Below, one piece after another: positions 9,465-60,011 of a DNA stretch of 64,000 bases; within the stretch, counting starts at the first letter, position 1; each line of letters opens with the position of its first letter. Origin of the DNA: Mustelus asterias (Eukaryota); the NCBI RefSeq assembly GCF_964213995.1, contig NC_135815.1:49786001-49850000 (forward strand), written 5' to 3'. The position numbers and the translations under genes were made by a program. Under the pieces are notes generated by a model. That model saw only the letters and a program-made list of their open reading frames with translations. It searched no databases and had not been told where the DNA came from.

Positions 9465-11539
9465 TTGGGGATCAGGTAAAGAATAGCAATAGCCCAAATG
9501 TTCTTTGTTGGGCCTAATGGAGCAAAGCTATGTGGCAATGCCATGAACTTATTACCTATAATTTTACAAAAGCAAAATACTGTGGATGCTGCAAATCTAA
9601 AATAAATGTAAATACTGGAACACTGTGAAGCATGAAACAGAGACGACTGGGAAACCTTTTACTTGCGAGGGTGAGGCATGTTTGGTAGCAAGTGAAAAAC
9701 CTAAAAGTCTGAGTTCCCCACATATGACTTTTGGTTGTAAGGCTGTAATGGGTTCTTGCATAGAAGTCAGCCTGACAGACAGATTTGGCTTCTAGTCGGG
9801 CTGGGAGAACTCTGGAGGACTCAACAGGATCAAGTAGGTCTGATCGCTAATCCCAGGTTTGGGGGCATGGAGTCCAAAGGGGGAGGTTCCAATCTCTACT
9901 TCGGGGTGGAAAGGGAGGGGATTTAATGCAATGTGAGCTTGGTTGGAGGGAGGCCAGGTGGAAGCACGCCTGCTCCTCTCGACCCACCTGAACTGCTGTG
10001 AAGGAACCTGCATTCTTCTTGAAGCTGTTCTCTCCTCGCTGCTACTGCTGGATTTGCTGAGGCCTGTAAAACCCATATAACTATGGTTACCCCAGCAAAG
10101 TAGGATAAATCTGAGGCTTCTAAATGAGGTAATTTGAGTAAGCCTGAAGCAAGTATAAGGGTTGTAGTTGCACTGCCTTTGGATCTGCAGTACAACAGGA
10201 AGATGGAACAAAGGCTTGGAGAGGGTAAGCTGTTCATGATGCCCTCTTGCCAAGTTGGAATCCAACTCCTCCATGTTTCTTGACAATGGCAGAGAGCTGT
10301 TTGGCAGGCCAGTCAATGCAACCAGTATCTCAGTGTCCATGCCCATCAGATTTATCTTGCATGTCACCCTATTGGAGGCCTATTTGAGTCATCTGTAGCA
10401 GAAATCATCTTCAACATTGCCCTCCAGTGAGATGGCAAATTAATCATCCTTTGCCCCTTGTTGATCAAGGCTCTGCTGTTTGATCTATTTGGTGAACACA
10501 AACTTACAAAATATCTGGAATTTGTTCAATCAAAATCAATCTTTATTTCATAAAATGCAAGTGACTATTCCTGTTCTAAAGTACCACGATCTATTCCCCA
10601 AAATAAGCAATACTTATCTTCCCGACTAAGATCAGTGAGTCAAGTGTGAGTCACGCTGACCAGGCACTAATGGATCAATTACCAGTGTTGTGGTCTCTGG
10701 GCTCCAAGCTTAGGGTTCTTTTTTTTCTTCTTCTTGCAATGGTTGTTCCCTGGTTGTCTCTTGCCAATGTTCTGTTCGCCAGTATATTTAAAACTTATTT
10801 CTCAAGGGGGTGTGTAACTCAGTACCTACATACCTGCATGTAGCAAGCCAATAAATCTTATAATTTCAACAGACACAATCTCATTATTTCAGTTAATCAG
10901 TGTATCTCTTGGTGTTTATCTCATCAGACAAGGTCTTGTTACTTCAGTTAATTAAGTTATCTTCTGTTGTTGAGCCTGTAGCTTGTACTGCCCATATTTG
11001 ATTAGAGCCACTTGACTCCTCAGAGTTGGCCACTTTTGCCAGCATGCAGTTCAATCTGGTTACAATCCTTCCTTTGATCCATTGTTTATTAATTTGGATT
11101 ACAAATTAATATCAACATGACTTAGTGACCCATCAATCCTCTCATAAAGGTAGCAATAACTAAGAAAACATCATAAATGCAAATACAGCAATGTTTTCAC
11201 TGTAACAACCCATCTATCTCTCATCTTTCCATTATCATTTCCGTTTGATGTTGCCATTGTAGCAATTTGATACAAAGTTAACATCATGACAATAATTACC
11301 ACATAAGAGGACAAATGTATCCATGGGTGAATTTGTACATTATTATCCCAAATATCATCCCACTACGTGGTCTCCTTAATCTCTTGTATTTCATTATTTA
11401 CCTCTTTTGTCTTATAATTATTCTAGTTTTTCATCCAATTTTGGTATATTAGCCAAATAAGTTTCATGGTAAAATTCCATTTTATTCCTTCACTCTTCTG
11501 TTTTTTTATGGCAACCTGTTCTCACCCTAGGTGGACTCT

Positions 11540-21403: not shown

Positions 21404-21617
21404 TGTGGAGATGCCAGCGTTGGACTGGGGTAAACACAGTAAGAGGTTTAACAACACCAGGTTAAAGTCCAACAGGTTTATTTGGTAGCAAAAGCCACAA
21501 GCTTTCGGAGCCTTAAGCCCCTTCTTCAGGTGAGCTTAAGGCTCCGAAAGCTTGTGGCTTTTGCTACCAAATAAACCTGTTGGACTTTAACCTGGTGTTG
21601 TTAAACTTCTTACTGTG
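21404..21617. mobile_element. Penelope-derived fold-back mini-element with 14-bp TSD, inserted in a tRNA-derived SINE
   Basis: 87-bp inverted arms 21432-21518 and 21534-21620 (1 mismatch); TSD TTTCACTCYCAGGA at 21390-21403 and 21618-21631; arms match the end of the Penelope element at 40466. Confidence 0.88.
21496..21532 (-). ncRNA. Minimal type I hammerhead ribozyme motif
   Basis: Minus strand CAC-CUGAAGA-A-GGGGC UUAAG GCUCC-GAAA-GC-UU-GUG; AAGCUU palindrome at stem III. Confidence 0.75.
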
Positions 21618-40465: not shown

Positions 40466-42820
40466 AAGAGTTTTAACAACACCAGGTTAAAATCCAACAG
40501 GTTTATTTGGTAGCAAATGCCATTAGCTTTCGGAGCGCTGCCCCTTCATCAGATGGAGTGGATATCTGCTCTCAAACAGGGCATACAGAGACACAAAATC
40601 AAGTGACAGAATACTGATTAGAATGCGAATCTCTACAGCCAACCAGGTCTTAAAGATACAGACAATGTGAGTGGAGGGAGCATTAAGCACAGGTTAAAGA
40701 GATGTGTATTGTCTCCAGACAGGACAGCCAGTGAGATTCTGCAAGTCCAGGAGGTAAGCTATGGGGGGTTACTGATAGTGCGACATAAACCCAAGATCCC
40801 GGTTTAGGCCGTCCTCATGTGTGCAGAACTTGGCTATCAGTTTCTGCTCAGCGACTCTGCGCTGTCGTGTGTCGTGAAGGCCGCCTTGGAGAATGCTTAC
40901 CCGAAGATCAGAGGCTGAATGCCCGTGACCGCTGAAGTGCTCCCCCACAGGAAGAGAACAGTCTTGCCTGGTGATTGTCGAGCGGTGTTCGTTCATCCGT
41001 TGTCGTAGCGTCTGCATGGTTTCCCCAATGTACCATGCCTTGGGACATCCTTTCCTGCAGCGTATCAGGTAGACAACGTTGGCCGAGTTGCAAGAGTAGG
41101 TACTGTGTACCTGGTAGATGGTGTTCTCACGTGAGATGATGGTATCCGTGTCGATGATCCGGCACGTCTTGCAGAGGTTGCTGTGCCAGGGTTGTGTGGT
41201 GTCATGGTCACTGTACTCCTGAAGGCTGGGTAGTTTGCTGCGGACAATGGTCTGTTTGAGGTTGTGCGGTTGTTTGAAGGCAAGAAGTGGGGGTGTGGGG
41301 ATGGCCTTGGCGAGATGTTCGTCTTCATCAATGACATGTTGAAGGCTCCGGAGGAGATGCTGTAGCTTCTCCGCTCTGGGGAAGTACTGGCCGATGAAGG
41401 GTACTCTGTCCACCGTGTCCCGTGTTTGTCTTCTGAGGAGGTCGGTGCGGTTTTTCGCTGTGGCGCGTCGGAACTGTCGATCGATGAGTCAAGCGCCATA
41501 TCCTGTTCTTATGAGAGCATCTTTCAGCATCTGGAGGTGTCTGTTGCGATCCTCCTCATCCGAGCAGATCCTGTGTATACGGAGGGCTTGTCCGTAAGGG
41601 ATGGCTTCTTTAATGTGTTTAGGGTGGAAGCTGGAGAAGCGGAGCATCGTGAGGTTATCCGTGGGCTTGCGGTACAGTGAGGTGCTGAAGTGATCGTCCT
41701 TAATGGAGATGCATGTGTCCAAGAATGCAACCGATTCCGGAGAGTAGTCCATGGTGAGTCTGATGGTGGGATGGAACTTGTTGATGTCATCATATAGTTG
41801 TTTCAGTGATTGTTCACCATGAGTCCAAAGGAAGAAAATGTCATCGATGTATCTAGTGTATAGCATCAGTTGAAGGTCCTGTGCGGTGAAGAAGTCTTGT
41901 TTGAACCTGTGCATGAAGGTGTTGGCATGTTGAGGTGCGAATTTGGTCCCCATGGCTGTTCCGTGTGTCTGGATGAAGAACTGGTTGTTGAAAGTGAAGA
42001 CATTGTGGTCCAGGATGAAGCGGATGAGTTGTAAAATTGCATCTAGAAACAGGCAGTTGTCGGCATTGAGTACTGAGGCCGTTGCAGCAATGCCATCATC
42101 GTGGGGGATGCTGGTGTAGAGTGCCGAGACGTCCATTGTGGCGAGGAGTGCTCCTGGTTCAACTGCTCCATGTGTGCTGAGTTTCTGTAGGAAGTCCGTA
42201 GTGTCGCGACAAAAGCTGGGGGTTCTTTGTACAATGGGTTTCAGGATGCTCTCGACATAGCCGGAGAGGGTCCCATTGCCCGATACGATGGGACGGCCGG
42301 GTGTGTTTGCCTTGTGTATCTTCGGAAGGCAGTAGAGATCTCCAACGTGGGATGAGAGCACGGAGGGTGCTCTGAAGGTCCGGATCAAAGGTCTTGATCA
42401 GAGTGTTGAGTTGATGGGTGTGTTCTTTGGTCGGATCTGTGGGTAACTGTCTGTAGTGTTCCTCGTTGTTCAGTTGTCGGTACACTTCTTTGCAGTAATC
42501 CGTTCTGTTCAGTATGACGATTGCTTCTCCTTTGTCTACTGGTTTGATGACAATGTTGCGGTTGGTCTTGAGAGCGTGGATGGCGTTGCGTCGTGCTTGG
42601 GTGATGTTCGGGGCTGTCTTGTGAGTGCAGCTGATGAATTTGATGTTGACGCACCTCCTGACGGCTTGGGCATACATGTCAAGTCGAGGGCAGCAGCCTT
42701 CCGGAGGAGTCCAATTCGACTCTTTCCTCTTCGGTTGCACTGCGGATCTCTCTGTCGGCTGTTCCGGTTCATTGGCTGTCTCATTGTGTTCGCTGTTGGC
42801 CTCTTGGGGTTTGTGGAAGA
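40466..42820 (-). mobile_element. Penelope-like retroelement (RT plus GIY-YIG endonuclease), 5'-truncated, 14-bp TSD
   Basis: RT motifs LPKIHK..PGRPIVS, GTAMGT, RYIDD (41489-42388); GIY-YIG NVVYLIRC..YIGET..RMNEH (40769-41413); TSD TCTCCCYACTAAGT at 40452-40465 and 42821-42834; a few stops and frameshifts. Confidence 0.95.
40520..40556 (-). ncRNA. Minimal hammerhead ribozyme motif in the Penelope 3' pLTR
   Basis: Minus strand CCAU-CUGAUGA-A-GGGGC AGC GCUCC-GAAA-GC-UA-AUGG. Confidence 0.8.
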
Positions 42821-43303
42821 TCTCCCTACTAAGTCCCAATCTCATATTTCTCCAGATTCTCTCTCGTCTCCTCTCATCTTCCCTGGGCTTGTCTTCTATA
42901 CAAGATGCAATGTCTCTCCATTTCCACCAAACCAGTGACCATCCAAATCGCTTCCTTGTCCCATGCTAGTTGATATAAATGATTACAACGACACTGTCCA
43001 CCTCCCTTTCAAATCTGTCATCATCACTCCTCAAAAAAAAACATCTACAACCACGCTTTATAATTACTACCCCATTACCAATCTCCCTTTCTTCTAAAAA
43101 TTCCATGACATATTACCAGCTCACAAATTTGTGATCATCTGTCCCACAAATCTATGTCTGAAACTCTCCAACTTGGCTTCTGGCCCTGCTACAGCACTGA
43201 AACAACCCAATTGACCACATTTCTCAATCTGGCGTTTGTACATTCCCCATTTATTCATCCTACTCTTACAGTAGGTGTCTTCAACTGTCTAGGCCCTCTG
43301 GAA

Positions 43304-43437
43304 TCAAAGCAAATTACTGTGGATGCTGGAATCTAAAACCAAAAGAGAATATGCTGGAAAATCTCAACAGGTCTAGCAGCATCTGTAAGGAGAGAAAAGA
43401 GCTGACGTTTCGAGTCCAGACGACCCTTTGTCAAAGC
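43304..43437 (-). mobile_element. 134-bp Penelope-type terminal fragment of a second family
   Basis: Imperfect 13-bp direct repeats AGGCCCTCTGGAA (43291-43303) and AGGCTCCCTGGAA (43438-43450); related partial copies near 9571-9625 and 59648-59723. Confidence 0.7.
43401..43437 (-). ncRNA. Minimal hammerhead ribozyme motif, U3-A8 core variant
   Basis: Minus strand GCU-UUGACAA-A-GGGUC GUCUG GACUC-GAAA-CG-UC-AGC; GUC cleavage triplet. Confidence 0.72.
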
Positions 43438-44206
43438 AGGCTCCCTGGAACTTTGTTCTCTGCTTCTCCATAATATTCTTCAAGCCTATCACTTTGATCA
43501 AGCTTTTAATCGCCCCTTGTAACATCCTTCTTGGGTTTCTGTACTCTTTTGTGAAGCATCTTGGGATGTCTAATAAAGGTGCTATGTGGTTGAAAGTTGT
43601 TGTTGCAGTTAGTGTCACCAAATCAAGCACTGTAGGGTTTTAAGGAGAAGGTCCACTTTTGCCTCTCAGGTCACCAGTGAGTGTACAATATAATTGTGCC
43701 TTTGCCAGCATCACTTCCATCCTGAGAACAAATTTTATAAAAGCAATGTGTAACAACTGTCCCTGGTGATGGTAGGCTGATGCACCTTGGGAGCAGAGTA
43801 TAAATAAATTCCGATCAACATGTCTCTACCATACTTAGCAGTATAATGGGAAGAATGCATTCATGTCCAGTGAGTAGGACTGTAGGAAAAATCTGGGGGT
43901 CTCAAGTATCAATTGATGGAATGAGACTTCCAGCTAAGCCAAACTTTAGCTCTCAGCTGCACACCCTCTGTAAAAACTTAGTATTAATCTTAGCAGCTAG
44001 TTGCTGAATGCTTAGTTATTCTGCATTAATTTACGATGACCCCTATACACCTCACAGACATTGAATGTTATAGATTATTCACAATTGATCAAAAGAAAGT
44101 GATTCTGCAACTTTAGATTTATTTGTTAAAAATCAGGTGAATTTGTGGAAAAGTTGTAACTAATTAAATAACTAATGTGCAAAATATTGTTGCTCAAGTT
44201 AGATAA

Positions 44207-59583: not shown

Positions 59584-60011
59584 TAAAAAAAAGCAGCATT
59601 CCTAAATATTGCTGATTTTCTGCCTTCAAAAGAAGTTAAATATAATACTGAAATAGAAAAAGGAAAATGCTGGCAGTACTCAGCAAATCAGTTAGAATCT
59701 GTGGAGAGAGAACCAAAGTTAACAGGGAGAATTTCCCCCCAAAAATTGTAAGTTGCATAACAGCGTGTAAACAGGGGTCCTCCATGTTGGTCTTTTGTGC
59801 GAGTTCGGCACTGCAATCTTCCGGCACAGTGTCAGTTTTTCTGACAGCTGGGAGGTGGGGGGGGAGAAACGGAGCCCAAGTACACCGAGGAAGCAGCTTC
59901 AGAGTGCTTGGGCACCATTATGCAGGGCATCCCGAACTGCCAGTGAATCGGGAGGCCTCCTCATACCCCCATCACAGATATCGGACCTCTCAAGCACTGT
60001 ATGTTATCAAA

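Follow-up and report, generated by a model that had tools for sequence, protein, structure and literature searches.

The question raised by this locus is whether a short repeat unit that begins with a variant hammerhead ribozyme motif is an element in its own right or a fragment of a larger one, and whether the unusual core of the motif reflects selection or decay. The unit lies on the minus strand of the window, the 64,000-nucleotide stretch of Mustelus asterias DNA that was analysed as a whole. From position 43437 the minus strand reads GCU UUGACAA A GGGUC GUCUG GACUC GAAA CG UC AGC, letter for letter as given in the initial annotation, with its U3-A8 pair, GUC triplet and ACGU stem III all present between 43437 and 43400. 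On the basis of sequence and folding this segment (43400..43437) is a minimal type I hammerhead with a 3-bp stem I (43437-43435 pairing with 43403-43401), a core box U3 U4 G5 A6 C7 A8 A9 (43428..43434, with U3 at 43434 and A8 at 43429), an extra A between positions 9 and 10.1, and a 5-bp stem II with a 5-nt loop (43412..43426, pair probability 0.99) that includes the G10.1-C11.1 pair (43426/43412). These are followed by the GAAA box, the palindromic, loopless stem III and the GUC triplet (43404..43411); ACGU occupies 43408-43405 and C17 is 43404, with the predicted cut between 43404 and 43403. Judging from what is described for such motifs in PMC4209133, the loopless stem III would require a dimer. 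An Rfam scan of this copy returned no hammerhead at E<=1.

The unit as a whole (43304..43437) corresponds to positions +2 to +135 of a repeat family, numbered from the first A of stem I, and belongs to the start of the 5' leader of a Penelope-like element (PLE), as described below. In this copy 8 of 135 positions depart from the family majority and the +1 A is missing, leaving a stem I of 3 bp as against 4 bp in the family. The imperfect 13-bp direct repeats that had been described around it are indeed present: 43438..43450 on the 5' side and 43291..43303 on the 3' side agree at 11 of 13 positions and are likely the two copies of a target-site duplication (TSD). The 3' repeat opens with letters that the element itself would continue with, possibly a case of priming microhomology, so that the 3' end of this copy is uncertain by about 5 nt. 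Its TSD score is 6 (the cut-off used was 8), and TSDs are general in the family, occurring in 20 of 40 short non-inverted copies as against 1.7% of 520 shuffled flank pairs. A check of the window flanks for an empty site gave one weak match, to the 5' flank only. The last ~35 nt (43304..43338) form an optional tail between two clusters of copy 3' ends, comparable to the tail described in PMC11167929. The copy has no TATA box and is probably an inert, dead insertion. Elsewhere in the window, short or decayed pieces resembling the family tail or older relatives lie at 9569-9602, 10025-10061 and 59658-59712. At four further loci of the genome (L018, L026, L073 and L004) stubs of the family sit inside copies of one other short repeat, and their TSDs start with letters matching the element's continuation behind +135, which suggests microhomology-aided priming at these sites.

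A DNA search of the 3.68-Gb genome of origin recovered 2,882 candidates, of which 40 were scored, at 93-96% identity. The 28-nt core pattern has 4,278 exact genome matches and its reversed control has none, so the core motif is not a chance pattern; a 34-mer behind the core has 9,360 exact matches, again with none for the control. Among 178 core-bearing copies, 49 run on upstream of the motif and 129 are short (89 with an inverted arm and 40 plain). In the long copies the motif is preceded by a 3' UTR of ~385 nt and, before it, the end of a GIY-YIG frame, and longer copies also carry an RT, the whole unit measuring ~3.3-3.6 kb. The clearest examples are L319, in which a 732-aa open frame with RVT_1 (E 6e-7), a CX4CX2C linker and a GIY-YIG domain (E 0.006, below the Pfam cut-off) is followed by the U3-A8 motif, and L323, in which the pLTR-ORF-pLTR insertion is complete, with flanks bearing a matching repeat and 3,620 bp between the motifs. 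The motif is found in both pLTRs of L323 and behind the ORF in L319, L317 and L316. No copy was intact among 150 scored RT matches, the longest open frame being that of 732 aa. The five full-length copies open their leader with the motif and have the main ATG at about +172.

The best named homologues of the frame are from rays and a shark (~61% identity) and are annotated as GIY-YIG/RT. All three natural frames checked have a CX2-5CxxC linker between RT and EN, which is common to, and according to PMC8557442 defines, Neptune and Nematis. The family resembles these EN+ PLEs, as PMC8557442 describes them, in its single frame with RT and C-terminal GIY-YIG, and in its partial tandems, inverted 5' copies and tail of 30-40 bp at one end; with the TSDs, all of these EN+ PLE features are seen in the family. 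Vertebrates are reported to hold Neptune and Poseidon (bioRxiv 10.64898/2026.07.22.740005). The element thus appears to be a Neptune-type EN+ PLE, the clade being read from the linker motif alone, and it may already have a name in repeat databases. The earlier proposal of a further Penelope-type family with a ribozyme, separate from the CUGANGA families of the window, is upheld by the long copies with RT, GIY-YIG and the U3-A8 core. Two observations concern the larger copies: L133, L134 and L135 have kilobase-long head-to-head arms, each with its own terminal tail, and represent a long form of the two-ended insertion; and at least 15 loci (L139-L144, L151, L153-L157, L160, L161 and L163), mostly on small contigs, have more than 1.4 kb in common at 98.5-99.9% around a 5'-truncated ORF piece of the PLE, and would be either a young large repeat or a segmental duplication carrying that piece.

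With the family's 3' letters fixed, the genome contains 3,255 cores with U3-A8, 56 with C3-A8 and 41 with U3-G8. The single variants, at 1.7% and 1.3%, are close to the per-site transition rate among copies (median 1.3%). Two samples drawn independently of the core give the same picture: among 96 copies selected by their tail, 78 reach the core and, two being left out for indels, 67 of the remaining 76 have U3-A8 and none has C3-G8; and among 30 loci picked by ORF sequence, 25 of the 26 that bear the motif have U3-A8. As these samples agree with the genome-wide counts, U3-A8 is the master state of the family and the single variants represent neutral decay. The family majority is therefore U3-A8 and not the C3-G8 of CUGANGA, the consensus that the initial annotation had weighed against its own reading. 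Covariation is provided by a C3-G8 sister family. The linkage among copies that the initial annotation proposed to tabulate at positions 3 and 8 is a weak test, as the copies decay neutrally. The other hallmarks of the minimal hammerheads (min-HHRs) of PLEs described in PMC4209133 are likewise present, namely the extra nucleotide (A9.1 in 72 of the 76 indel-free copies), the G10.1-C11.1 pair (G10.1 in 71 of the 76), the core boxes with a Watson-Crick 3-8 pair and GAAA, an NUH triplet (GUC), the palindromic, loopless ACGU at 15.2-16.2, and a short stem I. Descriptors built on CUGANGA miss this family of more than 9,000 copies.

A C3-G8 core with the same stem II has 54 genome matches, and 28 of 30 such loci that were fetched differ in the triplet or in base 1.1, have a tail and UTR of their own, and constitute a sister family. 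The other two, L041 and L059, bear the GUC triplet and tail of the U3-A8 family and have a strong predicted misfold; they are possibly intermediates, recombinants or double reversions. When the majority of 26 sister copies is set against that of 39 family copies, four of the 39 motif positions (3, 8, 17 and 1.1) differ, and all four differences are compatible with the fold. In a simulation of four random changes all changes were fold-compatible in ~2% of runs, and a Watson-Crick double at 3 and 8 arose in 0.3-1% depending on the CpG weighting; that the simulation is post hoc, and that G8 belonged to a CpG, tell against this evidence. As the more distant relatives in the fetched loci, read by eye, are mostly C3-G8, the swap likely ran from C3-G8 to U3-A8. 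The covariation gives moderate grounds for selection on the fold, as distinct from proof of catalysis, and we are fairly confident that the swap occurred once in the master lineage and was retained because the fold matters. With U3-A8 the core also becomes an interrupted palindrome of 11 nt (family positions +3 to +13; 43436-43426 on the minus strand of the window), which the C3-G8 sister does not have; several inverted joints and small duplications involve this palindrome.

Copy ends were surveyed in 96 of the 9,360 exact tail matches, those that come first, in unbroken order, on contig C1; they represent 85 loci, 11 of them two-armed, and a single copy of the 96 starts at the cut site. Genome-wide, the cut-site junction pattern has 54 matches as against 58 for a control placed two bases on, and the 30 cut-site matches that were fetched include no plain junction (16 are inverted joints and 14 substitutions or deletions). 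Eight to 11 of the 30 are inverted joints that share AGCT with an arm reaching +1; these could stem from cut RNA or from plain microhomology and amount to at most ~0.2% of copies. Since the pattern is no commoner than its control and plain junctions number 0 of 30, cut RNA appears to add little or nothing to insertions in the U3-A8 family, which does not in itself make the ribozyme dead. In the other hammerhead family of the window, for which 76 copies came up incidentally, about three start at their cut site, all at inverted or complex joints, these being read by eye and too few for a contrast. That second, very common PLE-type repeat family has three C3-G8 minimal hammerheads in the window, at 21489-21563 (both strands) and at 40552 and 50900 (minus); the first, a head-to-head palindrome, is mistaken by Rfam for mir-879 at less than the gathering score, and no TATA box is evident at -30 before any of the three.

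In ViennaRNA a misfold that sequesters the core is preferred over the hammerhead in both monomer and dimer (-22.8 vs -16.1 kcal/mol), and the same holds for C3-G8 copies; as the hammerhead is favoured in neither family, thermodynamic folding does not discriminate between them. A predicted core-blocking helix with GUC/A in natural copies has -9.4 kcal/mol in U3-A8 as against -13.4 and -13.9 kcal/mol in C3-G8. Min-HHRs are reported to cleave weakly and as dimers (PMC4209133), and in PAc, the Poseidon of Anolis carolinensis, unprocessed RNA is reported as the substrate and cleavage as needing protein (PMC11167929). For the present motif we lean, by a small measure, towards slow cleavage that occurs only as a dimer or with the help of protein, the cut RNA rarely or never serving as template.

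A different interpretation of the core is that U3-A8 is unselected, CpG decay having produced A8 and a chance transition U3, and that the motif survives, dead or nearly so, as a relic within a leader retained for protein binding. This would accord with C7-G8 being a CpG, with the lack of a cleavage footprint in the copies and with the predicted misfold, and Naiad PLEs are reported to thrive without canonical hammerheads (PMC8557442). It requires, however, a double change that reached only ~1% of simulations even at 10-fold CpG weight, and the same swap recurs in Schistosoma PLEs and in other natural hammerheads according to PMC4209133 and PMC3088659. We regard a relic as doubtful, although it is the least improbable of the competing explanations.

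The ends of the copies point to the origin of the unit. In the survey 31 of 96 copies begin exactly at +1, the A of stem I, and 52 begin between +1 and +4 (10 of them at +3), the remainder being spread over the next 45 positions (17), -6 to -1 (7) and points more than 6 nt upstream (20). Of 26 long copies, 24 have a TATAAAT box (at most one mismatch) at -30, as do six of eight sister copies, and the box is identical between the families at 7 of 7 positions as against 10 of 23 and 7 of 15 in the adjoining sequence. The 3' ends fall mainly at +96 to +104 (32 of 96) and +126 to +142 (39 of 96), and in 10 of the 11 two-armed insertions one arm ends at about +100-110 and the other at about +135-145; the clusters at +99 to +105 and +135 to +142 are likely RT start sites. 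These observations suggest that the start of the stub is likely the transcription start of the element rather than the predicted cut. As read from the DNA, the TATA box in the 3' UTR/pLTR probably drives transcription from +1; a pLTR with a TATA box and an initiator is already known from Adineta (PMC3846280), and the promoter of D. virilis Penelope, though TATA-less, likewise places the start in the upstream pLTR (PMC2377424).

The same boundary might instead be set by structure or microhomology, with RT stalling or folding back at the AGCT palindrome and the adjoining interrupted palindrome, the element itself being the same. Half of the core-bearing copies (89/178) are short with an inverted arm, their joints are often centred on AGCT, and 39 of the 54 copies whose start lies between -1 and +5 form an arm of an inverted pair, in which AGCT can itself set the joint; only 13 of 43 non-inverted copies in the survey start at +1 to +4. 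An extra G before +1, sought as the mark of a cap, was present in 5 of 24 copies and was not enriched (p = 0.63). Against this, plain TSD-flanked copies also begin at +1 to +3, and in a larger set of short non-inverted copies 24 of 40 start at +1; a second AGCT at +36 draws almost no ends; short copies of the sister, which has no interrupted palindrome, nevertheless mostly begin at +1 or +2; and the TATA box stands at exactly -30 in both families. A boundary of this kind is accordingly unlikely.

We therefore favour, with reasonable confidence, the view that the stub is a short 5'-leader copy of an abundant PLE, made by internal priming near +135 on uncleaved RNA and by run-off at +1. The observations on which this explanation draws are the membership of the unit in the family, the fixation of U3-A8, the existence of a C3-G8 sister, the concentration of starts between +1 and +4, TATAAAT, the 3'-end clusters, the TSDs and the read-through past the cut site. 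Transcription directed by the TATA box of the pLTR would begin at +1, the first base of hammerhead stem I, after which the element's protein would bind the leader and its GIY-YIG nuclease nick both strands of the target. The RT would prime at about +100 and +135, copy through the uncut hammerhead and run off at +1, leaving plain stubs or head-to-head pairs, while priming in the downstream pLTR would give long copies. By analogy with PAc, cutting of both strands by GIY-YIG and priming at these two sites, with either product, is the step that we hold as highly probable.

A further finding speaks against run-off from +1: the 5' ends of four of the five full-length copies pass +1, extending 28-170 nt beyond it, and a linear RNA starting at +1 would give no such extensions without a template switch, read-through or a circle. 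In the model of Cervera and De la Pena an active ribozyme releases the unit by cleavage in both pLTRs, ligation closes it into a circle, and RT working on this circle yields long and more-than-unit copies, the stubs coming from linear RNA. This would account for the partial-tandem 5' extensions of those four copies, religation would leave no footprint at the cut site, and all four changes in the motif between the families keep the fold. The extensions fit template switching or read-through equally well, however, and ribozyme mutants of PAc are reported to insert normally in vitro (PMC11167929), and we consider a circular intermediate improbable in the present family.

It is far less probable still that a 3' splice site defines the boundary: the sequence before +3 does consist of a pyrimidine tract and a closing AG, and a D. 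virilis intron end maps to helix I (PMC4209133), but most stubs retain the AG (31 of 96 start at +1 as against 10 at +3) and they share no common upstream exon, and we have rejected this reading. Least tenable is the notion of a non-autonomous retrozyme or SINE with its own master, and with it that of a separate 134-bp unit, as first read here: sharp ends, TSDs and the prevalence of short copies (~7 in 10 core-bearing copies) would suit it, but the short (121) and long (65) copies have identical majorities and the same 3.8% divergence, none of 363 cores in the fetched loci stands head-to-tail with another within 600 nt on one strand, the tandem arrangement that had been suggested for examination, and stubs lack a TATA box, so the unit is a stub of the 5' leader/pLTR of the PLE, and a stand-alone retrozyme, with neither tandem units nor a separate lineage in the short copies, was rejected.

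Comparison with known systems places these features in context. The U3-A8 core is not new, ~1,300 U3-A8 min-HHRs being reported in the PLEs of Schistosoma mansoni (Cercyon elements; PMC4209133). The min-HHRs described there are also similar in their location in pLTRs, their mostly solo, truncated copies and their U3-A8 covariation. In the alignment given in that paper, in contrast, the vertebrate rows are all C3-G8 and no shark is listed, and the present case differs in having U3-A8 fixed throughout a single homogeneous family, whose close sister is C3-G8. Natural hammerheads other than PLE min-HHRs are described in PMC3088659 as showing U3-A8 covariation too, with activity in vitro stated for them. 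PAc (PMC11167929) offers a parallel in its two internal RT start sites that bound the tail, the extension of both strands and the use of uncleaved RNA as template, with no reads at the cut site in the data presented there. Unlike the U3-A8 family, with its downstream ATG, PAc belongs to the Poseidon clade, has C3-G8, and starts its ORF inside the hammerhead. The stubs recall animal non-LTR retrozymes (bioRxiv 10.64898/2026.07.22.740005) in being short, non-coding and pLTR-derived with a type I hammerhead, whereas retrozymes are defined there by tandem units. In the literature consulted, we found no report of this family or of a TATA-anchored pile-up of copy starts.

The core variant and the class of element were thus already known; new are a family in which U3-A8 is fixed beside a C3-G8 sister, and the TATA-anchored pile-up of copy starts. 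The role of the hammerheads in PLEs is described as an open question in PMC8557442, and the two families, with U3-A8 and C3-G8 set in almost identical 39-nt motifs of a single genome, can serve as a natural test pair. They also offer evidence that the fold is under selection and, at the level of DNA, a record of uncleaved RNA having been copied in vivo. If +1 is the transcription start, solo hammerheads in vertebrates would be numerous as run-off copies of the first 100-135 nt of the RNA. A more tentative and rather improbable reading is that the stubs are a fossil map of the 5' end of the RNA, and that the ribozyme, instead of taking part in copying, is a switch that limits the element or makes circles and was re-tuned by the compensatory U3-A8 change to a form whose cut RNA never inserts. 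Were this so, the hammerhead would begin at the very first transcribed base, cleavage at the 5' pLTR would clip off a capped leader of 35 nt and cleavage at the 3' pLTR would sever the priming sites from the ORF, and the swap to U3-A8 would also weaken the core-blocking helix that C3-G8 forms with GUC/A.
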